From a virus: 64,000 nt of DNA. Made by a program: the position numbers and the translations under genes. The notes under the pieces are model-generated. The model was not told the DNA's origin. It saw only the letters and a program-made list of their open reading frames with translations, and searched no databases. Positions within the stretch are counted from its first letter, which is position 1; each line of letters opens with the position of its first letter. The stretch lies in IMG/VR virus record IMGVR_UViG_3300035494_000146. One strand, given 5' to 3'. Positions 42,501 through 56,029 of this stretch are shown one piece after another.

Positions 42501-43696
42501 GTGTTCAGGATCTCCGGCAAGTTAGTGAGATTATAACGTGCGCGACGACCAAAGCTAGCCAGCGCTTCATTACCCTCACCCTGCTCGCGCAGCTTCTCCT
42601 GAATCTTGCGAATATGTGGCTGGATATATTTCCTGGCAAGCATGCCGCCAGCCATACCAGCGCCGGTTTGTGCTGCCTTAAGTCGTTTCTGGGCAGGTGA
42701 CAAATGTGAATCGTCTTCTGACGAGTCATCCCCCATCATTCCGACCACACCACCCACCATGCTGATGTTGTCCCGCACACCACTGCCGAAATCACTGAGG
42801 GCGCGGCGGGCATTAGTGCCGAGTTGCGACAGGTAGGATCTCGCAAACTCAGCCGGCGACAATGCAGACAGTATCTTCCGCTTCAGCATTGCTTGACCAA
42901 TTTCCAAGAACTCTTCCTTGGCATAGTCAGGCAATGCGGTGTTGCGTACGATTGATTCTGAGGCCGGGACCAGCTTCTCCATACTGGATTTGGTGATGTC
43001 CAGCAGATCCGTCAAGGCGTAGTACTGCCGGTAGTTGATTTCCAGCATCTTCCTGCGGTAGTTGGTGGTGACAGTCTGGTACCCCACCATTGCATCCGTG
43101 TTGGCATGTACGCCGGCCAGCGATTCATGCAGACGGTTTTGCCGCAAGATGTCTGCTGACTCTTTCAGCTCATCCTCGGCCCGCTCTTTCAGTTTTTCCT
43201 TACGGGCCTCCTCTGACTTGACCTGGAAGGTGTCGCTAAGTGCGGCATCAATTGCCGCTTGACGCTCATCGACATGTGCATAGTTGCCAGTGCTGCTGTC
43301 GTCTTTGGTCCATTTTTCTACCCGCTTGGTGAGCGATTCCGGCAGGTACTGTTTGAGCATCGGCAGCGCTTCCCGCCCTGCCTTTTTCAGCTCTATCTTG
43401 GTCTGACGGAGTTGATCCTTCGCCTCCCGATACACCGCGGTGCCTTCGCTGGCGATGTTATCATATGCATCCGCCGCCACCGTGTAATCTTTGGGAAGTG
43501 AGTCCAGGATCAGCTTCCGACGTTTGCCCTCACCAGCAATCGTCGAGGCAGCACTCGTCACCGCCTTGGCGGGGATGGACATGACGGCTTCGCGACCGGA
43601 CGGTGGCGCCATTGACGGGGGCTCGAAGTCCGCATCGAAATCTAACTCATCGTCGAGATCCCAATCGTCGAGCTCCAAATCTTCTTTTTTTGCCAT
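36587..43696 (-). CDS. Tape-measure-like tail protein with lytic transglycosylase domain (phiKZ gp181-like), 2369 aa
   Basis: Very long helical ORF; hydrophobic Ala/Gly segments; SLT motifs AMMESSLNP, AKGLYQF, GAEYL, YLSHFLGPGGA at ~37330-37800; divergent from vRNAP beta' as in phiKZ-like phages. Confidence 0.88.
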   Translation of the reverse strand: MAKKEDLELDDWDLDDELDFDADFEPPSMAPPSGREAVMSIPAKAVTSAASTIAGEGKRRKLILDSLPKDYTVAADAYDNIASEGTAVYREAKDQLRQTKIELKKAGREALPMLKQYLPESLTKRVEKWTKDDSSTGNYAHVDERQAAIDAALSDTFQVKSEEARKEKLKERAEDELKESADILRQNRLHESLAGVHANTDAMVGYQTVTTNYRRKMLEINYRQYYALTDLLDITKSSMEKLVPASESIVRNTALPDYAKEEFLEIGQAMLKRKILSALSPAEFARSYLSQLGTNARRALSDFGSGVRDNISMVGGVVGMMGDDSSEDDSHLSPAQKRLKAAQTGAGMAGGMLARKYIQPHIRKIQEKLREQGEGNEALASFGRRARYNLTNLPEILNTYAKDNNYEGQHGWLGSLAALLQDIMPSYDGDTVGVTDVTGEELERAVPWSRRSDLTLNEVLPGWLSKIHGALTGVDEQYDHTTKQFVSTDVIRNRIRDTVGDQETREYVRQEIDRLVDIIDPDKELSAQDRTVLGRVLDEKIRKVESFDVRDLANSYDAYGSAGYNHDVMDLMTHFGQIEYDKPHQEKLNIEISDELRRLRESITPVQAAVDEMTGLYGHNAVANSGVLDQDLSLNKAMVDSYSNVADIHPASPEARARVAKVVEEVGKVILDPTVEVNIRDVTADVYQGVKDALYQSEPNLYMVLKDAMLAHRPPSTPLASTVVSVAQPKTEEDRDYTAEIYTGVRDALYYSDPNMYSVLSDVLYDRDRPNNLYTVIATACGELAKGNDQSDRGALESVVERIHAQLVANDISPQVDAILDLIEHMAISGIGTYEQPEGEKPGYFGKFGQHLRGTKDKTVDKVVSGYTWGREKLGKGKDWLKSKIGSPFKAIGALKDTVTDTVGSAWRGLTGTRDIYDDQGNVVLSGRILKMGQYFDADGKVIKTLKDIKGAIYDRDGNIVLSAEEVLRNASKYTYYTKQGWRKLSEMVGGGVGSAANRVVSIPKNVARFLKDQGGGVLNSLRTSGDIYVKGEDEPRLKRHLMLKGFYFDKKTGKVIRDVDDIGGPVVTGEGHEVISASELADPNFQLVDVNGEPFKSVVSKAVDKVGSVYRFGKRAVTGAVGFAADLLGAGAEGIRGFFKGFVTTEDVKGIKTVLTDIYELLDERLPGGSEKSEPEEKVAGDADGDGVRDNSFRDIFRRRREARAAAAEKNEVPNRPEDVDKKSPLGKILGALMGVGGFVADKFMGLMGTASTFFVTKVLGGLTDGFGKLAAKFAGWVATAMAGKQAADTVGEVLDTAGDIDLEREGRRRGGRRGRMRDGLRRGGNAAKNAAKRATSKVSEKMAQRAAAKAATQTASRAAAQTAARQAVIQGGRMAATAGVTAAASGISMAGVGSAVASGAAAVGSFLTAPVVLGAIAVGGLGYLAYRIATSEDNGPLDQIRFAQYGLEDYDDAKHDEVAKIRYLEAEVGKYVAYNKDGVASIRGFADETAIQVAAGFGVDVDNAEDLQAYEDWFYGRFCSVYLLWASRLRQLSPSSTMGELEKTVTDAKIRAEMAQRTLLPETHPVFNVMVSPFEPGWFGRDDLLSGTKVRGIHLDLLSDLKKKAEKAKDKVLASAEKDTTVVAIKSPAPTDSGSGSVVTVKKSANPNHDTDNKKSSTASVDEIMLDAASGNFRMGIIELSATEAVRMRAYGLTKLKTSKVLTLMALELDAHEHIVISRGIAKFKGSVEEFAKVHMPEFGSNYDDAEQQTAWRGWFTHRFLPILLKYLSVLNMHAPNARPFDIVESSTTPYLADVAKSLTWARVEIGGENVGVWSVMFNPWNDKDPINTDPKSTQGNIEFLESRKAAAELAEKTIDPNRPTAQVLTAGTNNRPRADSGSGTGPVVTAGSADQQRQQVSSAIDNAWNNRQVGGPGGNSGGPISSSGIPIGDISDPVDPNGAYAKIKLASHSRGDVAKMISEVSKATGMDENLMLTVAMMESSLNPNAGATTSSAKGLYQFLVGKDGKSGTWGEQLRAHANKYGIPSNASAFDPVANALLGAEYLRLGARTVGNLSPSGKATPVDLYLSHFLGPGGARTFLRGLKKHPDKSVLPEWQKQAKANTWVFYAGNRPRSYREVYMELQRRARNAFNSVSQYASVPGQKAIEPPMAPPSSPEAASVASASVSGNVVDTPAPNMGGGAMPSPAADSGLPESSTPEQREAVTVAKAKQDVRQVTAERNQGAVSTIIPSEAPSVGSSIAERTVGAMRKKVGDGPHRVDMERYETAVKDEVMTNTVAPAMNLSEVMASITRQQRAMAEATNGILNEQLLVQREMAATLLSIRDQLLKSSNAPKSPVAPPTVASSQGKVKAEPAVTHQRGVISMAREYF
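41411..41659 (-). repeat. Two diverged 84-nt (28-aa) repeats within the tape measure
   Basis: RDVTADVYQGVKDALYQSEPNLYMVLKD (41576-41659) vs RDYTAEIYTGVRDALYYSDPNMYSVLSD (41411-41494), 18/28 identical. Confidence 0.8.
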
Positions 43697-43718
43697 AACT
43701 ACCTCGGAAAAAATTAAT

Positions 43719-45155
43719 ATGGATTGGTTAACGTTTTATCTGCTCAATGTGGATAAGTCGGTAGTGTCTAAACTCCGGCCAGTGACCACCCTCGACACCT
43801 TCGAAGGTGCCACGAAAAACTTTCATTCAGAAGGTCTCTACTCCACCACCACTTTTGGTCCTGTAGGTAGCGAGCAGCGCGACCTGACATACTCGTACAT
43901 CGATGTTAACATCGACATTATCTCTCCGGCGATTGCCTTGACGCTGTTCGAACTGAAGCGCCTGTATAAAGAGGTGATGAGTGGGAAACGGTACGCGGTG
44001 TGGGACGAAAAAGAAAAGGACTTCCACCCGGCCGCCCCAGGCGACGCGGGGGCGGGGACAGGGTACAGTTTCTTTATCAGTAAATTTCACGACCTCACAC
44101 CGAAGGAAACCGCCAGCAACGACCGTAAGGAGTCGATTAACCTCCTTAACAAATTCCGATCGATCGCACTCGGCCGATACGTATTGGTAATGCCAGCCGG
44201 CTTGCGTGATTTGGAAGTTAAGCCAGACGGACAAGAACAAGAATACGACATCAACCCGTTGTATCGTAAACTGCTCTCTGTCAGTAAAACCATCCCCAAT
44301 GTCGGTAACAAAAACAACCCCCTGCTAGATAACGCCCGGTGGCGTCTGCAGGAAACGTTTTGTGAGATCTATAAGTACTTCTTCGAGTACCTGGATGGTA
44401 AGAAGGGCGGCATTCGTGGCAAGATGACCTCACGACGTATCTTTAACGGTACGAGAAACGTGATCTCCTCCATGGATGCCTCTAGTCCCGTGATGGACCG
44501 GGAAGACGAGATTCGTCCCACCGACACCCTGATGGGGATGTATCAGGGGATGAAGTCGTTGCTACCGGTGGCGATACACGCGGTCCGTACTCGCTACCTG
44601 CCACCAGTCGACGCAGGTAACGGGGCACTATACCTTATCGACCCGAAATCACTAAAACGCGACATGGTGATGGTGTCGCCGGAAGACTACGACCTGTACA
44701 CCACCGACGAGGGGGTGGAGAAGCTCATCACTGACTTCCACCACACAGAAGACAAACATCAACCGTTGAAGGTTGACGGCAGATACATCGCCCTGATCTA
44801 CGATGATGGTAAACAGTTCCGGGTATTTCACGATATTCAGGAATTCCCGGAGACACTTGATCGTTCGAAAGTGAGCGGCATCACGTACGCTGAGTTGCTG
44901 TATTTGAGCGGCTACGATAAGTGGAATGACTATTTCACCATGGTCACCCGCTACCCCGTAACTGGTCAGGGCAGTACGTACTCCTCTACTATAAGATTGA
45001 CCACCACTGCCAGAACCAAGATGAAGTGGGAGCTGGATGCGGACTGGGAAACACGAAAGACAAAACCGGCCATCGATTTCCCAGATCGTACCGTAACTGA
45101 ATTTGTTACCTCTATGGCACCACACCCGAGCAACCTGGTGGAACTCGGTGCTGAT
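43719..45155 (+). CDS. rpoC: Virion RNA polymerase beta' subunit (phiKZ gp180-like), exon 1
   Basis: VLVMPAGLRD, GKKGGIRGKMTSRRIFNGTRNVIS, RYP motifs of beta'; ends ...ELGAD before the intron; start ATG 43719. Confidence 0.9.
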
Positions 45156-45624
45156 TAACTGTATCTGTAAAAGATGCCCTAGTCCCACTGGGGAGTAATT
45201 CCTAGTTGGTAACCTCCTTAATTGCTGGAAGATGCTAAAGTCCAACACACAACAACGTGGTCCGAAAGGGCGAGCGTGATTGTAGCCGAAAGGCGGAAAA
45301 AAGTCAAACGTCTCGCCTTGGAGACGGGTTGGAATGACCTACGCTAACACATAACAAGCGACGGCTGAGAAGTCCTCGCGCTAAGGGTCGATGCAATGCT
45401 TAAATCAGCAGCTGATTCCCTAACGTCTATTGACCACGGGACGAGTTCAACGACTAACCGGTAGCGCGGTGTAGAGCAGCAAGCCAATGGCTGTTCGAAA
45501 TAGGAGGCCCCTCACCGAGGGTGATAAGATAGTCTAGTATCCACCTGTAATGGGTGGGAAGTTCGGGTCGTTGGGAAACGACTGTCGAGAACTGTGTCGG
45601 GGCTGCGTCCGACATGAATGCACG
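45156..45624 (+). ncRNA. Group I self-splicing intron (IA-like, ORF-less, 469 nt) in the vRNAP beta' catalytic motif
   Basis: Exon ends in U (GAT) and intron ends in G; P1 GAU|UA with UAGUC (45180-84) gives a U-G pair at the splice site; P2 hairpin 45187-45206 with GUAA loop; P AATTGCTGGAA 45220-30; Q AATCAGCAGC 45403-12; R GTTCAACGACTA 45445-56; P3 CCTCCT/AGGAGG; P7 GACTA/TAGTC (45530-34); removal restores GADFDGD. Confidence 0.95.
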
Positions 45625-45798
45625 TTCGATGGTGACACTGGATCTGGTGATTCCGTCTACACCGACGAAGCACTGGAAGAAAACCGCAAACAAATGCAAA
45701 AGGCATCGTTCTGGGTGAATGGTGACCGTCTAAAGATTGATGTCAACACCGACTTGATTGAACGTACCATGTTTAACCTGTTGGCTGACCCTGAATAA
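45625..45798 (+). CDS. rpoC: Virion RNA polymerase beta' subunit, exon 2 (FDGD...; spliced product ~536 aa)
   Basis: Begins TTC GAT GGT GAC = FDGD, completing the catalytic ADFDGD motif in frame. Confidence 0.92.
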   Translation, partial: FDGDTGSGDSVYTDEALEENRKQMQKASFWVNGDRLKIDVNTDLIERTMFNLLADPE

Positions 45799-45826
45799 TT
45801 CTTACCGATAGGCAAGGAAGGACAGA

Positions 45827-48800
45827 ATGTTACTTCGCAACTTTAACCGACAGTTTTCAGTGATTCGGGTCGAACAGTTCGGCAATCCACGTATCGCATC
45901 ACTGTCGAAGCTCGAACTACCCAGGGGTAGTATTCTGCACTACATCCCGACCGATGGGGTGTCTGAAATTGGCCCGCCGCAGAATCACCCGATTTTGGAG
46001 AAGGCGGAAAAACTGATTCAGGTTAACCACGTACTGCACCTGGCCGAACATGGCACTGTCGGCCGACCCCGTCGTGTGGAGACCGCCATTGCTCGCGACG
46101 TGATTCAATATCATCGGATCAACAAACGTCTGCGGATGATGCACAATACCAAATTGGTGGAGCGTGACGATCGGGTCATGATGGTGGAGAACTATGCTCC
46201 GTTGCGTCGGGTTTATCGTTACCCCGAAACGTTGATGTCGTGGTATGAGCGCTGGTACAACTTGTTCCTAACTGTGGTTACCCAGCTGGGCCACGACAGC
46301 TCTACTTTCCAACGACAGAACTACCTACTGTTGACCATTCCGACCAAGTTGCCGTCCATTGCTAAGTTGCGTAAGGCGGAGAAGCGACGCGACCTCAACA
46401 CCCTCGACAGTATGCGTGACGATAACGTACTGTTCTTCCTGGAACTATGGACTTGGTTTGGTCCTAACCGTGACCGCGGCATGTTGGGTAAACTCACGGC
46501 AGAGCAACTCAAGCGGATCAACGTGATCGTGTCGTTCAATGATCGATTCATCAACATGAACTTGGGTGAGTTGGATTTCTGGCGTAAAGGCGACACCGGT
46601 GGACGCATTGATCCTATCCAAATGCAGCGGCGTCTGTACAAGTCCATCATCCAACTAGCAACGGAGCAATTACCGGAAGAGGTGAAGTCCACCCAACCGG
46701 TGTCTGTACGTGAGGATGCTGATGGCGAGATCGTCGAGACCGAGCTGCTGGAAGACAGTGGTGAATTCGATCCGCCTGAACTTACTGATGGTGACGATCG
46801 CTCGGTTGAAGAGGAGATTGAAGCGTTTGATGAGCAGGTTGACCTTGACGAAGAGGAAGATTTTGAGATAGTCCAGACTACCGATGAGGTCGAGGTGGAG
46901 GATGTCAAACACACCACTATCACTATTGACAACGGCATCAAGCGAGAAAGCCTGCGTTATATCGAGGCCGGCCAACTGACCACCAAGGAATACCAGCGGA
47001 TGCTGGATCAGTCAGAAAGCTACAAGGCCATCCCTAACCCGTTTGGCGAGGGGACGCTGGCTGATATGCTGGAGGTCACGTCCGAGGAAGTGGCGTTGGA
47101 GGAAGAGTTGTTGCTCGAGGATCCGGTATTGTTGGATCCTGGTCTAGCGAAGAGTACAGTCACGAACCTCAACCGCAAATACATACAGAAAGTGCTGCCG
47201 AAAGACATTTGTAGTTCAATCATGGCTGTGCAGAAAATGGGCATAGTTGTCAATGACTACAAAGCCGAGGAAGTAGTGGACGCTGCCAACGGTCTGGTAT
47301 ACCACACCCTCAAAATCACTCCGGTGAAGGGTGAGTCGTCCACGATCCATTTCCCCACACCACTATTTGATGATGAAGGGTATTGGACAGCGAACGACGT
47401 GCGCTACACCATGAGGAGGCAGCGGGTCGACCTCCCTATTCGAAAGACTGCGCCAGACACCGTCGCACTCACTACATTCTACAATAAGAACTTCATTCGG
47501 CGTAGTGACAAGGTGGTGAATGATTGGCCCAAGTGGCTGACCAACAACATCATCACTGCAGGCATTGATGCCAGTAACCTGAGCGTGAGCGATTTGCGGT
47601 TTGCTAATGTTTTCGACCCTACTGTGGAGTTACCACGCGACTACACTTCCGTATCGCAGCGACTCTCCGGTTTCACCTCACAAGGCATCGTGTTTAACTT
47701 CGATTACAGCACGGTGGATAAAACCTTCGGTGTGGAGAAGGTGGCCGAACTGAAAGAGCAGAAGCTGGTACCTGTCGGTAAATCACGTGGCGCCACTTAC
47801 GTCATGGATCCGTTTAACATGATGTACAAGGAAGACGGCAAAGGCCTGACCGAAGTGGGGACTCTCGCAGAAGTGCTTGGCTTCGATATCAGCAAGGCGC
47901 CGAAAGAACACAGTGAACTGTCGATGATGGGGAAGGCAATTCCAACCGGGCTCGTGATTGCGTACTACTACGGGCTGGAGAGTGCGCTGAAGGAGTTCGG
48001 CGTCGACTATCGTCTGGCGGAAGCAGGTGAGCGTGTCAAGGCCGATGAAGGCGATCTGATAATTCCCTGCAGAGACGGTAAATACGTTATCACCTACGCA
48101 AACCAGGAGCAAGCACTGATCTTCAATGGTCTGCGTCATTACGTCAAGATCACGCGCGACTTCTCCATGGAAGACCTGAACCGTCAAGACGTGTATCTGA
48201 ACCTGATTCAGAAAGACGGGTTGACGGTTAGGTATCTGCTGGAGCTGGATCAGATGGACGCCATGTACGTGGATCCAATCAGTGAACGCATCTTGAAAAA
48301 GATGGGCGAACCGACCACGTTTAGGGGACTTATCCGACGTGCGAACGAAATGTTGACCTATGACCAACATCCGCACGAGACCGATATGGACAGCATGCAT
48401 ATCTACGGACATCAGCGCATTGCTGGGGCAGTGTATGGGCAGTTGGTTAAAGCAATTCGAGACTCCCGCAATAAACCAGGTAGTCGGAAGAAGATCATCT
48501 TACCGCCCAACCAAATCTGGAGCGCGATTGCACAAGACCCGTCGGTAATGCCGGCATCCGACTCCAACCCAATTCAGTCTATCAAAGAAGCTGATGTCGT
48601 GACTTTCGGCGGGACCGGCGGACGCTCTCGCAGATCGATGGTGAAGAGGACGCGGGTGTTCGGTAAGAACAACCTGGGAGTGATCTCCGGCGACAACGTT
48701 GACAGTGGTGACGTTGGCATTACCGAGTACCTGACTAACAACCCCATCTTTGATGATGTTGATGGGTTGATTAAACCGCTGGACCGTGACAACTTGGAGG

Positions 48801-48856
48801 TGAACCAATACCTGTCATTTTCTAACCAGTTAGCACCGGGCATTATGCACGACGAT
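45827..48856 (+). CDS. rpoB: Virion RNA polymerase beta subunit, N-terminal/main piece (phiKZ gp178-like), exon 1
   Basis: RRQRVDLPIRK, NPIQSIKEADVVTFGGTGGRS, GVISGDNVDSGDVG, PGIMHDD beta motifs; AAGGAAGG RBS. Confidence 0.9.
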
Positions 48857-49326
48857 GGACATAAACGTCGCCTCTACGAGTGATTGTGGAGTGATAACTT
48901 TCTTAATTGCTGGAACACCCTAAAGCTCAACTCGCTACAGCATGGTCCGAAAGGACGAGTGCGATACGCGGTCGAAAGACAGAAAAAAGTCAAAGGCTTC
49001 CTGAGGAGGCCAGTTGAGATGCCCTACGCTTAAAGGAGTGCCTGTCGGGAGACGCGCCGCTAAGGGGTTATGCAATGGACAATCGAGCAGCGAAGCTCCT
49101 ACCGGCGTCGGGAGACGCACCAAGGAGAACGTTCAACGACTAGAGGGGTCGCCCTCGTACTGGCCAAGTGGCTAGGAAAGAGAAAGCTCTCATCGTAGCG
49201 CATTAGGTGCGCTTGTTAAGGTGAGATGATAATATAGTCTGGACATCTGGGGAAACCCCAGAGCAGCGTCGCCGACCGGGAGGTCCGTGATAGCGGGAGT
49301 GATTAACGACCACTCTGAACATTTCG
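48857..49326 (+). ncRNA. Group I self-splicing intron (IA-like, ORF-less, 470 nt) in vRNAP beta
   Basis: Exon ends GAT; P1 CGAU|G with CGUCG (48866-70) gives a U-G pair; P AATTGCTGGAA 48905-15; Q AATCGAGCAGC 49081-91; R GTTCAACGACTA 49131-42; P3 CTTTCT/AGAAAG; P7 GACTA/TAGTC (49235-39); P9.0 GGA/UUC before terminal G 49326; removal gives HDD-GKRASF. Confidence 0.93.
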
Positions 49327-50460
49327 GGAAAACGAGCAAGCTTTGTTGGAATTCAGCATGGCTCAGGCATGTCTGCCAACGGATATGAAGTCACCGCATT
49401 CCGTACTGGGGCGGAGAAGTTAGTGGCCCACCGTACGGGGAGCAGTCAGGCAGTAGTGGCTGCAGAGTCCGGTAAAGTCGTCGAGATGGATGAGTATGGT
49501 ATTACCGTGGAATACGACACCAAGCCCAAGACCACTAAGTCATACCCTGTCGGAAAAACCTTCGGTCGACATGAGGGCGGGGTCTTCCCGCATGTGTTGG
49601 TTCCTAATGTTAAGGTTGGTCAGAAGTTCGCCAAGGGTGATGTACTGACCTACAACGAGAAGTTCTTCGAGGTCGATCCTGTTACGCCTAACCAGGTCAA
49701 CTGGAAAGCGGGAGTGATGGCTAACGTTGTCCTACTGGAAGGCACCGACACCCTTGAAGACTCCAGCGCGATCTCGCCAGCTTTGTCGGAGAAGCTAACC
49801 ACACAGATCTCCAAGGTGAAACATATCACGGTGCGTTTCGATCAAGCCATACATGACATGGTGAAGGAAGGTAAGAAGCTGACCCCCGACACTGTACTCT
49901 GCGTGATCGAAGATGCGGTCTCTGCTGGTATGCAAGGCTTCAGCGATAAATCCATTGAAACGCTACGTAAGTTGGCAGCTAAGGCACCTCGCGCCAAGCT
50001 CAACGGGGTGGTGGATCGTATCGAGATCTTCTACCACGGCGATTATGAAGACATGTCGGAATCCGTTCGGGCACTAGCAGAGTGGGGCGATCGTAAGCGT
50101 AGGCGGGAAGCCAAACGCAGTCCCAAACGGCTGGCGGAGCATGGTCGGGTTGACAGCTCTCTGCGGATTGAAGGTAATCCTGTAGAGCTGGAGACTATGG
50201 TCATCCGTCTGTATATGACGCAGGAAGTGCCGGCCATTGGTGGCGACAAGGCCGTGTTTGCCAACCAGTTGAAATCAACCTTTCGACGCGTCATGGTTGG
50301 CGTTAATGAAACCGAAACGGGTCTACCTATTGACGCCATCTTTGGACGCAAATCGGTCGATGCGCGGATCGTGTTGTCAGTGTACCAGATCGGCACCACG
50401 AACAAGGTTTGTCAACTGATCTCTGAGGGCGCACAAGCGATTCTGAAAGAGGGCGGTTGA
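49327..50460 (+). CDS. rpoB: Virion RNA polymerase beta subunit, exon 2 (spliced product ~1387 aa)
   Basis: Frame open upstream of ATG 49369 to GKRASFVGIQH; contains LEDSSAIS and GDKAVFANQLKSTF...PIDAIFG (beta GDK...HGNKG-equivalent). Confidence 0.9.
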   Translation, partial: GKRASFVGIQHGSGMSANGYEVTAFRTGAEKLVAHRTGSSQAVVAAESGKVVEMDEYGITVEYDTKPKTTKSYPVGKTFGRHEGGVFPHVLVPNVKVGQKFAKGDVLTYNEKFFEVDPVTPNQVNWKAGVMANVVLLEGTDTLEDSSAISPALSEKLTTQISKVKHITVRFDQAIHDMVKEGKKLTPDTVLCVIEDAVSAGMQGFSDKSIETLRKLAAKAPRAKLNGVVDRIEIFYHGDYEDMSESVRALAEWGDRKRRREAKRSPKRLAEHGRVDSSLRIEGNPVELETMVIRLYMTQEVPAIGGDKAVFANQLKSTFRRVMVGVNETETGLPIDAIFGRKSVDARIVLSVYQIGTTNKVCQLISEGAQAILKEGG

Positions 50461-50478
50461 TTCCTTATTGCACTACGT

Positions 50479-50499
50479 GGGGTGGGTCGCTCCCACCCC
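50479..50499 (+). terminator. Hairpin after vRNAP beta
   Basis: GGGGTGGG-TCGCT-CCCACCCC. Confidence 0.5.
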
Positions 50500-50528
50500 T
50501 CTAACTTTAAAACACTCCGGAGAATGAC

Positions 50529-50723
50529 ATGCACGTTTCAAATGAACGGCGTAATACCATTACCCTGGCCAATGCTGTAGAATTGGCCGTACGTGCTCAG
50601 ATGCACACCATGCGACAGCATGGCAACAAGACCTCGGGCGGTAACAAACTGACCCGCCAAATCCTGGCTGACGCCACCGTCGCCAAATTCCGTGTCCGGC
50701 TTGACGACCACCTGCGAGGCTAA
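50529..50723 (+). CDS. Small conserved virion protein candidate
   Basis: 64-aa ORF, GGAG RBS, between the beta gene and the gp177-like gene. Confidence 0.55.
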   Translation: MHVSNERRNTITLANAVELAVRAQMHTMRQHGNKTSGGNKLTRQILADATVAKFRVRLDDHLRG

Positions 50724-50728
50724 TACCC

Positions 50729-52183
50729 ATGATCAGTATTGAAGTTCTTACCGCCATTCACCCCTTGGCAGATCAGATCAACCAAGCCTGTTATCGACTG
50801 GCGACCACCGAACAGTCCCCAGTTGGTGCGTTGAACAGCGCCAGTTTCACTCCGCTGATTGACACTTATGAAGGCGACTCCGGTTTCATTGAGGCCTGGC
50901 AACACACCCTGACACGACACCCGGTCACTGGCGGCACTGAACCGGTGACTGATGACGCCGACGGCGACGAGATCGTACTACTGCCACAATCACTCCATTC
51001 TCTGTCCATGGATGAAGCGGTGTCATTCGTGGCCACGGGCGCCATGAACGCCCGAAGTCATGCCCAGAACGTGGCTAAGCCGGTGATCAACTCCATGCTG
51101 GACAAGATGGAGACTTATATCGATCACAGCACTGCCATCGTGGAACCGTTCGAGCTGGTAGAAGTTGGTCTGTTGGATGCCTGGACCAACCCCATCGTAC
51201 GCACTGCGTTGGACAACCATCCGTTCCGCGGTCGACTGAGTCCGGTGGAACGCGCCGCTATTCCGCGGATTCCGGTGCCCGCCAACGTTGATTCACTGGT
51301 TGTCACCGGTTCGTCCAACATCGACGGTGTCTTTGCGGCCCTGCTGCGCGAGACCGGCATGTCTGCAACTGATGTGTTCAACCTGATCTTCAATGGTCGT
51401 CAGGATGCCGGCAGACTCACTCACCCGGTGTACCTGACTCGCAACGAATCGCTGTTGTGCTACCTGTTTGCGAACGTGCTGTTGGACAACCCGGTGGAAG
51501 GCAGCGGTCTGGAATTGCAGACTTGGGAAACATTGCTGCACAAACTGGTGACGGCGTATGCCGATGCCTGCAACATGATCCTGAGCATCTACGAGACCGA
51601 ACTGAAAAGCCGAATCGTGTTCCATGGCATCAGTGACGATGGACGTATCCTGTATTTGAACAGTCCGGTGTACGATCAGTGGTTGGATGCCGGCGGCAGT
51701 CCGGAAATACTCTTCGGCGCCCACATGAACCGCAAGTCGTCTGGCGATATGAACTTCCAAGTCATGCTCGACAATGCGCAGGTTAATCAGACCGCCTGGT
51801 CCAACTACCACAACAGTCAAAAGCGCCTGCAAGAGACCGAACGGCTGCGCAAGGTCAAGGACGCGATGTACTCCTGCGTCCTGTCTGAAATCGACGACCT
51901 GGACCCACGCTACTACCCGCCCGGAATGGAAAAGGTCAAGGTGATTGCGCGTGCCAAAGACGTGCTGGCAGATATTCGCCCGACCGATCTTAACGACGTG
52001 GGCGCGATCTGCATGAAGTACGTGTGCGATGTGCTGTTCCCACACACCAACGCGTACCGCTTCCTGTCTGAGATCAGTCGTAAGGTTGAAATGGGAATGG
52101 ACGTTGAGGAAGCAGCCACGGAAGTCACCAACGAGTACATCACCGACTGGATTATCTCTGGTCTGTTAATTTACAAAGGGTAA
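50729..52183 (+). CDS. Virion (head) protein, phiKZ gp177-like by synteny
   Basis: 484-aa ORF between vRNAP beta and the gp176/gp175-like genes. Confidence 0.6.
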   Translation: MISIEVLTAIHPLADQINQACYRLATTEQSPVGALNSASFTPLIDTYEGDSGFIEAWQHTLTRHPVTGGTEPVTDDADGDEIVLLPQSLHSLSMDEAVSFVATGAMNARSHAQNVAKPVINSMLDKMETYIDHSTAIVEPFELVEVGLLDAWTNPIVRTALDNHPFRGRLSPVERAAIPRIPVPANVDSLVVTGSSNIDGVFAALLRETGMSATDVFNLIFNGRQDAGRLTHPVYLTRNESLLCYLFANVLLDNPVEGSGLELQTWETLLHKLVTAYADACNMILSIYETELKSRIVFHGISDDGRILYLNSPVYDQWLDAGGSPEILFGAHMNRKSSGDMNFQVMLDNAQVNQTAWSNYHNSQKRLQETERLRKVKDAMYSCVLSEIDDLDPRYYPPGMEKVKVIARAKDVLADIRPTDLNDVGAICMKYVCDVLFPHTNAYRFLSEISRKVEMGMDVEEAATEVTNEYITDWIISGLLIYKG

Positions 52184-55270: not shown

Positions 55271-55300
55271 TAGGGGTCCATGGACCCCTATCTTTTTTTT
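55271..55300 (+). terminator. Terminator built on a perfect 20-bp palindrome
   Basis: TAGGGGTCCATGGACCCCTA followed by T tract; contains the ATG the ORF track used as a start. Confidence 0.75.
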
Positions 55301-55315
55301 GCGTTGGTGTGGAAT

Positions 55316-56029
55316 ATGTTGATTATATTACGTTACTTGTTTATCGTAGTTGTAGTTGTCGGTGGGGCGAAAGTGTTCGCTGAAACCAAACTGGCCGTCT
55401 CTAGTAATAAATGCCACGATATCACATCGCCTTATTACTCGAATGTACAGCACTACATTAGCTACGATAGTCTGGATGCATGTGCTAGTAACATTGGCTA
55501 CGGCACGGTCGACGACTGTGTCGCTGCCGGCATGTGTTATGTCCGTGATGTCAACACAACGAACTACGACCGAGAGGGTAACTTTGGGCGGTGGACTGAT
55601 GAAGACAGCAACTGCCTGAACACCCGACACCAGTTGCTGGCAATCGCTTCTCGAGGAAACGTCATTATTCGAGATTGTAAAGTGGTAGGCGGGTTGTGGA
55701 TGTCACCATTTACCAACAACCACATCACCGACCCGTCGGTGTTGGAGATAGACCACATCGTGCCCTTAAAACACGCATGGATGCACGGAGCGGACCAGTG
55801 GGATCACACAACGCGCGTCCAGTTCGCCAACGACACCGATAACTTATGGCCAGTTGAAGGTAACTTGAATAGTCAAAAATCGGATCAGGGGCTGGAATGG
55901 TTGCCGCCGCAGAACCAATGTCAGTATATCCTTAAGTTCCTATCAGTAGCACACAAGTACCGCCTGACGTACACGCCTGAGGAGAAAACCAAACAGCAAG
56001 CTTTGCGACAGCGCCACTGCCGGTTTTAA
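55316..56029 (+). CDS. HNH-family nuclease (DUF1524-like) with N-terminal signal peptide
   Basis: EIDHIVPLKHAW, ANDTDNLWPV, NSQKSD; hydrophobic leader MLIILRYLFIVVVVVGGAKVFA; multiple Cys. Confidence 0.8.
   Translation: MLIILRYLFIVVVVVGGAKVFAETKLAVSSNKCHDITSPYYSNVQHYISYDSLDACASNIGYGTVDDCVAAGMCYVRDVNTTNYDREGNFGRWTDEDSNCLNTRHQLLAIASRGNVIIRDCKVVGGLWMSPFTNNHITDPSVLEIDHIVPLKHAWMHGADQWDHTTRVQFANDTDNLWPVEGNLNSQKSDQGLEWLPPQNQCQYILKFLSVAHKYRLTYTPEEKTKQQALRQRHCRF

Follow-up and report, generated by a model that had tools for sequence, protein, structure and literature searches.

IMGVR_UViG_3300035494_000146 is a 174-kb IMG/VR virus contig, approximately 75% complete, from tar pit metagenomes. The window analysed here is a stretch of 64,000 nt that corresponds to contig positions G000:C1:78477-142476, with differences at 3 of 64,000 positions; coordinates without a prefix are those of the window. 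At 43.7-50.5 kb it carries two plus-strand genes that match jumbo-phage RNA polymerase (RNAP) families among the PHROGs profiles, and in each gene the profile match is split over two open reading frames (ORFs). Each split is occupied by a group I intron without an ORF of its own, and a third, homologous intron lies elsewhere in the contig within a DNA polymerase gene. The features are as follows.

43719..45155, plus strand: exon 1 of gene 1, 479 amino acids, ending ...GAD (phrog_2986; alignment to pVa-21 gene 166; PhiPA3 synteny)
45156..45624, plus strand: intron 1, 469 nt, ORF-less group I, first triplet TAA, last base G (RF00028; pVa-21 junction; homology to introns 2 and 3)
45182..45184, plus strand: guide core GUC of intron 1 (invariant columns in the three introns; pairing read from the sequence)
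45625..45798, plus strand: exon 2 of gene 1, 57 amino acids plus stop, beginning FDGD (phrog_2986 profile positions 484-538; pVa-21 alignment)
45799..45826, plus strand: intergenic gap, 28 nt, with a AAGGAAGGA ribosome-binding site (sequence reading; terminator scan)
45827..48856, plus strand: exon 1 of gene 2, 1010 amino acids, ending ...HDD (phrog_3148; alignment to pVa-21 gene 167)
48857..49326, plus strand: intron 2, 470 nt, ORF-less group I, last base G (RF00028; pVa-21 junction)
48867..48869, plus strand: guide core GUC of intron 2 (invariant columns in the three introns)
49225..49287, plus strand: block of 63 nt (3′ strand of P7, P9, P9.1), identical in introns 2 and 3 (sequence comparison)
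49327..50460, plus strand: exon 2 of gene 2, 377 amino acids plus stop, beginning GKRASFVGIQ (phrog_3148 profile positions 1065-1422; pVa-21 alignment)
G000:C1:28163-28682 (= L010:4164-4683), outside the window: intron 3, 520 nt, ORF-less, phase 2, joining MTQWI to VTLPAHM, exon ending TGGAT (pVa-21 polymerase alignment)

The exact junctions were set by aligning the proteins with those of Vibrio phage pVa-21, whose genes lack the introns; the corresponding proteins of phage CR5 are also uninterrupted. Removal of intron 1 joins ...LVELGAD to FDGDTGSGDSVY... and restores the β′ motif GAD/FDGD (the slash marks the insertion point here and below), while removal of intron 2 joins ...GIMHDD to GKRASFVGIQ... 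and restores the β motif HDD/GKR. Both junctions agree with the intron-less alleles of pVa-21, CR5 and the IMG/VR locus L009. The interrupted motifs are the Mg-binding (N)ADFDGD motif of β′ and the HDD-x-x-R motif of β.

A first-pass annotation, made from the letters of the window alone, had described two endonuclease-free introns in adjacent genes of one strand, each in phase 0 after a GAT codon and about 3.2 kb apart, with a 28-nt gap free of terminators between the genes. All of this is borne out by the alignments, an intron-to-intron distance of 3232 nt and a terminator scan, as is, by collinearity with pVa-21, the need for splicing to restore the motif in both genes. Both introns end in G (G45624 and G49326). 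The junction of intron 2 can be slid by 1-3 nt with the same product, and the position given is the only one that provides both a U at the exon end and a G at the intron end. Intron 1 opens with a stop codon, and an in-frame TGA stands 8 codons past the 5′ splice site of intron 2. Neither intron contains an endonuclease ORF, the largest wholly internal ORF on either strand being 47 amino acids in intron 1 and 62 amino acids in intron 2, and neither falls under the definition of an endonuclease-encoding mobile intron. Contigs from four DNA runs (tar pit and hydrocarbon metagenomes) contain no joint that skips either RNAP intron, which is not proof of absence. Gene 1 stops at 45796-45798 and the ATG of gene 2 lies at 45827, preceded within the gap by the ribosome-binding site. 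No terminator-like site occurs near the gap, the single plus-strand one in 43400-50900 being at 43900, and we infer that the two genes are co-transcribed as one operon.

The group I assignment is carried by covariance models, homology and a conserved fold. The Rfam model RF00028 matches intron 2 at 48843-49263 with 50.5 bits, against a gathering score of 50, and intron 1 is homologous to introns 2 and 3 (nhmmer E 5e-128, with a profile that includes intron 1). An RNAalifold consensus of the three copies contains 121 pairs, of which 49 show compensatory double changes, a count of limited statistical weight with n=3. Its helices comprise P2, P3, P4, a long P5 extension, P6, P7.2, P9 and P9.1. 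P7 (ACGACUA/UAGUCU) is invariant in the three genomic copies and covaries in the intron of phage Goslar (GACCA/UGGUC). Insertions of 34-42 nt between the 5′ strand of P7 and the 3′ strand of P3 fold into hairpins at the position of P7.1/P7.2, and because of these modelled hairpins the introns are placed in predicted subgroup IA. The P5 extension is a large multi-hairpin structure with GAAA tetraloops (45241-45333 and 48926-49018) and compensatory changes in its helices; it is found in both RNAP introns and partly also in the DNA polymerase intron, Goslar and the IMG/VR locus L056, and it is absent from the introns of phiKZ, 201phi2-1 and the IMG/VR locus L117.

Just 5′ of P2, all three copies carry the aligned and invariant trinucleotide GUC, which can pair with the exon GAU. 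In intron 1, G45153, A45154 and U45155 together with U45156 and A45157 pair with the GUC and the flanking U45180 and A45181. In intron 2, C48853, G48854, A48855 and U48856 together with G48857 pair with C48866, G48867, U48868, C48869 and G48870. Both P1 helices are thus short, at 5 bp, and place a U.G pair at the splice site (45155/45182 and 48856/48867). The exon contexts of the three copies are alike in GAT alone.

The third copy was found by a contig-wide search, as an RF00028 match of 51.4 bits in the B-family DNA polymerase gene (phrog_3011), and nhmmer recovers exactly three members of the family in the 174-kb contig. The RNAP introns had been presented as twins; both are real, but they do not form a closed pair. 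Intron 3 is in fact the closest paralogue of intron 2, with 71% identity overall, against 52% between introns 1 and 2 and 55% between introns 1 and 3, with core identities of about 62-69% for introns 1 and 2 and about 62% for introns 1 and 3. Introns 2 and 3 also have in common the exact 63-nt block, which is set in otherwise diverged sequence and at which the metagenome assemblies break. The block suggests exchange between intron copies within the genome, most simply by recent recombination or gene conversion.

At 49225-49296 the assemblies fork into intron 2, the DNA polymerase intron and a third sequence at approximately 7-fold higher depth, whose flank (…TGCACGTAATGGTGCGGG…) is similar to the P9.1 region of the phiKZ gp180 intron. 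This third path comes either from another intron-bearing entity in the sample or from a copy in the portion of the genome that the contig lacks.

A thymidylate synthase gene at about 172.3-174.3 kb of G000:C1 (L013:416-2417, minus strand), running off the contig end, is split by approximately 1.2 kb. Its pieces flank a 272-amino-acid ORF with GIY-YIG, NUMOD3 and I-TevI-DNA-binding domains in an arrangement like that of T4 td. This implies a fourth intron, unrelated to introns 1-3, with an I-TevI-like endonuclease; a search with Rfam found no core for a td intron around this ORF.

The genes that host introns 1 and 2 are identified by profile and by order. Gene 1 matches phrog_2986 (E 4.8e-193) and gene 2 matches phrog_3148 (1133 bits); a Pfam search of the RNAP pieces and a megablast search of the whole region against phages gave no match. 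The two genes are divergent from the adjoining gene for a 2369-amino-acid tail-fibre/transglycosylase protein, and a phrog_3841 gene follows downstream. The order tail-fibre, gp180-like, gp178-like, gp177-like is that of PhiPA3 (gp213, gp212, gp211-210-209, gp208), phiKZ (gp181, gp180, gp179, gp178, gp177) and 201phi2-1. Because of the PHROG matches and this common order, gene 1 is assigned to the β′-like virion RNAP subunit, as the predicted orthologue of phiKZ gp180 and PhiPA3 gp212, and gene 2 to the β-like subunit, as the predicted orthologue of phiKZ gp178. By analogy with these orthologues, both subunits would be packaged in the virion.

The closest cultured relatives of the phage are the Vibrio phages pVa-21 and pVp-JHP1101, at approximately 68-70% amino-acid identity. 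Outside the window, at G000:C1:51957-55513 (locus L123), the contig encodes a chimallin-like nuclear shell protein (phrog_4795, E 1.5e-28) directly upstream of an uninterrupted non-virion β′ gene (phrog_2987); tblastn with the chimallin of Shewanella phage FishSpeaker gave no match to the shell gene that the PHROG profile did find. Since it encodes such a shell protein, this uncultured phage is predicted to be of the nucleus-forming type (Chimalliviridae, phiKZ-like).

Both RNAP insertion sites are already known from such phages: site 1 lies after the Asp codon of G-A-D/F-D-G-D in β′, and site 2 after the second Asp of H-D-D/ in β, corresponding to Escherichia coli RpoB D675. At site 1, phiKZ gp180 ends …LGAD; the HNH gene gp179 comes next, then an RF00028 core of 92.2 bits, after which the exon resumes with FDGD. 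At site 2, PhiPA3 gp211 ends …NDD/, followed by the HNH gene gp210 and by gp209, which resumes with (x)KRVGF; the gp210 intron is inserted after two conserved Asp residues at RpoB D675, and gp210, which introduces nicks into phiKZ gp178, puts phiKZ at a disadvantage when the two phages co-infect (Birkholz et al. 2024, PMC11620839). The site 2 intron of 201phi2-1 gp273/274 is small and ORF-less. The gene is annotated there as a joined coding sequence, 'interrupted by a mobile…', and reads HDD/MKR, and its splicing is backed by earlier proteomic indications and two spliced reads (PMC11512511). Metagenomic ORF-less introns occupy identical codons in L117 (site 1) and in L069 and L014 (site 2), phages with only 27-31% identity in the two proteins. 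Both sites are intron-less in pVa-21, L009 and CR5, and a search of IMG/VR for close relatives gave a single locus (68% amino-acid identity), which is intron-less.

These observations argue strongly, and we hold with high confidence, that introns 1 and 2 are self-splicing, endonuclease-less group I introns of predicted subgroup IA, which represent the ORF-less stage of a homing cycle at the classic virion RNAP homing sites of phiKZ-like phages. Each pre-mRNA would have to self-splice to restore an intact catalytic motif: guanosine would attack at the U.G pair between exon GAU and intron GUC, and the exons would then be ligated past the terminal G. The introns would be selfish elements whose precise removal from an active-site codon is difficult. 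By interrupting the homing site, each is also predicted to render its allele uncuttable by the gp179- and gp210-type HNH nucleases of co-infecting phages. With the third copy in the DNA polymerase gene they would form one family, within which copies may exchange sequence inside the genome.

Several observations weigh against this account. The RF00028 match of intron 1 (45171-45557; 32.2 bits, E 4e-6 in a local search) is below the gathering score of 50, and its P1 comprises only 3 exon pairs and 2 intron-side pairs. No convincing P10 between the 3′ exons and the guide region was found in any of the three copies. The nearest relatives, at 68-70% amino-acid identity, all lack the introns, so the order of gain and loss is not derivable from them. 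Finally, the immunity to homing endonucleases is an expectation by analogy with the homing literature.

The first-pass annotation, noting the absence of a cis endonuclease, had turned to a free-standing endonuclease acting in trans or to reverse splicing, and a search for such genes of the HNH, GIY-YIG and LAGLIDADG types in the 174 kb found none. Profiles for HNH_3, LAGLIDADG_3, NUMOD4, T5orf172 and Endonuclease_7 have no matches there, and tblastn with PhiPA3 gp210 and Goslar gp69 gave no match in the contig. The sole GIY-YIG/NUMOD3 gene is the I-TevI-like ORF inside the td intron, and the HNH profile yields one weak sub-threshold match of 14.3 bits inside a GmrSD_C-like ORF. With approximately 25% of the genome missing, this is not proof that an endonuclease for collaborative or trans homing is absent. 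An ORF of 249 amino acids in the window (55280-56029, plus strand) carries the C-terminal domain (GmrSD_C) of a GmrSD restriction endonuclease (E 5e-10) and has no PHROG match.

Pairing of GAU with GUC is found in six of eight inspected family introns of other phages (phiKZ gp180, PhiPA3, 201phi2-1, L117, L069 and L056). The shared Asp codon thus follows from a guide sequence that is widespread in the family, and is no specific sign that one of introns 1 and 2 gave rise to the other. Guide-limited transposition could account for it, and so, equally well, could selection for splicing competence after an insertion of any kind.

Phylogenies were computed with FastTree on 236-314 common core columns of nhmmer alignments and have moderate, partly unstable support. 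In these the three introns of this genome fall in one clade with those of Goslar, L056, FishSpeaker and Klebsiella phage Miami (support approximately 0.9), and in a larger sample they form a clade of their own (0.88); the first-pass annotation had named placement of the two RNAP introns in unrelated clades as part of what would refute its reading, and that is not what the trees give. Same-site introns of other phages (L117, phiKZ, PhiPA3, 201phi2-1 and L069) are placed elsewhere, while the Pseudomonas-phage introns of sites 1 and 2 cluster together (0.86). Core identity is 66-69% among the three copies of this genome and 55-67% between them and same-site introns of other phages. Sister relationships vary with sampling, and the introns appear, weakly, to cluster by phage lineage and not by insertion site.

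A tentative extension of these patterns, which we regard as possible and somewhat doubtful, is that the intron family is not confined to single homing sites in chimalliviruses. Within a phage lineage its copies may pass from one Asp codon ending in GAU to another among essential polymerase genes, either through guide-limited reverse splicing or through ectopic insertion with a filter for GUC/GAU pairing, and may be partly homogenised by gene conversion, with endonuclease-less copies persisting as armour of active-site codons against the weaponised HNH nucleases of competitors.

A narrower proposal is that GUC/GAU-guided reverse splicing carried one of the RNAP introns of this genome into the second RNAP site, which would make the two parent and offspring. 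The first-pass annotation had called the shared GAU compatible with such seeding, as it is: the three copies have in common an aligned guide GUC and an exon GAU and nothing else in their exon contexts, as guide-limited targeting would produce, they share a clade, and the joint clustering of site 1 and site 2 introns in Pseudomonas phages offers a parallel. We nevertheless consider direct seeding unlikely. The two RNAP introns are just 52% identical, and intron 2 is nearer to the DNA polymerase intron by both overall identity and the exact block; GAU/GUC is a family trait, and any insertion at the DNA level would come to bear the same signature under selection for splicing competence. In addition, the tree topology shifts with sampling, and since endonuclease-bearing occupants exist at each site in other phages, homing followed by loss of the ORF would be sufficient.

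The dependence of both RNAP subunits on splicing also raises the idea of a regulatory checkpoint, in which rate-limiting, condition-dependent removal of both introns gates how much packaged RNAP is made and thereby how infectious the progeny virions are. Splicing of T4 introns is reported to depend on translation and growth state (reviewed in PMC3073962), and in a phage with a chimallin-like shell gene transcription may be apart from ribosomes, which could alter splicing kinetics. A checkpoint is nonetheless speculative and improbable, in that pVa-21, L009 and CR5 make the same enzyme with neither intron, occupancy of the sites is sporadic across phages, and the endonuclease-bearing mobile introns at the same sites in phiKZ and PhiPA3 explain the presence of introns without any benefit to the host.

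Still less probable is that the genes are simply split, with their pieces translated separately around dead ribozyme-like sequence. Subunits of jumbo-phage RNAPs are frequently split (PMC7598289), an in-frame ATG at 45550 and an ATG at 49369 could start the downstream pieces, and intron 1 is under the Rfam threshold. The splits, however, fall within DFDGD and HDD-x-x-R and not at domain borders, compensatory base changes point to a maintained structure, the terminal G, the U at position -1 and the pairing with the guide are preserved, and splicing of the same-site intron of 201phi2-1 is reported to be supported by proteomics and by reads (PMC11512511).

The first-pass annotation had also envisaged splicing from the start of intron 1 straight to the end of intron 2; this join is in frame, as a trivial consequence of both introns being in phase 0, and would give an 856-amino-acid β′(N)-β(C) chimera, a join to which the intron 2 guide GUCG could contribute by pairing with UGAU of gene 1 through a U.G pair, with no strong P10 to fix the 3′ exon, and for which exon skipping by group I introns in phage Twort (Landthaler and Shub 1999, as cited in PMC3073962 and PMC11620839) is a precedent. 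A role of its own for this product is speculative and the least credible of the explanations considered, since a protein without FDGD and residues 1-1010 of β would not amount to a polymerase subunit, the 3.2 kb passed over spans the stop codon of one gene, the intergenic gap and the start codon of the next where the skipped piece in Twort is a single exon between introns of one gene (PMC3073962), and a phase match arises by chance in one case of three.

Self-splicing introns at known homing sites, the preferred reading, have consequences for annotation. The four annotated-looking ORFs of this locus are really two genes, and the same error recurs in public records, for exon 2 of phiKZ gp180 (FDGD…), which is not annotated in RefSeq, and for the non-virion RNAP β′ of FishSpeaker and Miami. 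In these records the intron cores and the exons that follow them are missing from the annotation or appear as separate small ORFs (phiKZ L128:14159-14660 in NC_004629, FishSpeaker L007:4036-4360, Miami L008:4014-5406). More broadly, a single uncultured phage has both known virion RNAP homing sites filled by endonuclease-free introns, plus a third paralogue. It offers a natural case for asking whether introns that carry no ORF give protection in intron-endonuclease warfare of the PhiPA3-versus-phiKZ kind, and whether group I introns hop between sites that match in a 3-nt guide alone.

Comparison with other phages places the introns among several known arrangements. At least 108 IMG/VR contigs contain a core motif of the family, and in some of them five cores lie within 13 kb. 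Two viral contigs of 170-200 kb, L088 and L071 (IMG/VR 3300045988_156249 and _160472), are unusually intron-dense, with four or five cores within approximately 13 kb. As in T4 (td/nrdB/sunY), Twort and Bastillevirinae, several related IA-type introns occupy conserved codons of nucleotide-metabolism or polymerase genes in one genome, and there too some are ORF-less or have defunct endonucleases, with stop codons soon after the 5′ splice site. Exon skipping in Twort and trans homing in T4 (mobE, PMC2790892) have been reported in those systems. The present case differs in its targets, the genes for a multisubunit virion RNAP in a phage of the nucleus-forming type, and no helper endonuclease was found in the 174-kb contig.

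FishSpeaker and Miami carry unannotated introns of the same family, which match intron 2 and score 72.5 and 42.9 bits, respectively, with RF00028; that of FishSpeaker is ORF-less. They split the same catalytic motif as intron 1 but lie in the paralogous non-virion β′ gene adjoining chimallin, three codons later (DFDG/D), and their guide GCCG pairs with exon CGGU, unlike the GUC/GAU of the window introns. The DFDG/D site of the non-virion β′ gene is empty in the phage described here (L123).

The closest counterparts are the introns at the same sites. Intron 1 shares with the phiKZ gp180/gp179 intron the orthologous gene, the insertion point GAD/FDGD, the boundary GAT/TAA, an IA-type core and a similar 3′ end (…GAACAUAACG versus …GAAUGCACG). 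The phiKZ intron differs in having a 357-amino-acid HNH ORF between the 5′ splice site and the core, where intron 1 has no ORF, and in lacking the long P5 extension; the two cores are approximately 55% identical on common columns and belong to different subclades. Intron 2 shares with the introns of PhiPA3 and 201phi2-1 the gp178-family β gene, the point after RpoB D674/D675 and the GAU/GUC P1, although it clusters with the introns of its own genome and not with theirs. The PhiPA3 intron encodes the nicking HNH endonuclease gp210, active in competition between phages, whereas intron 2 has no ORF; the 201phi2-1 intron is ORF-less like intron 2 and smaller, since intron 2 contains the P5 extension. 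The elements thus belong to a kind known from model phages, where it has proteomic support and has even been studied functionally, and this phage provides an ordinary, tidy example that leaves current understanding in place.

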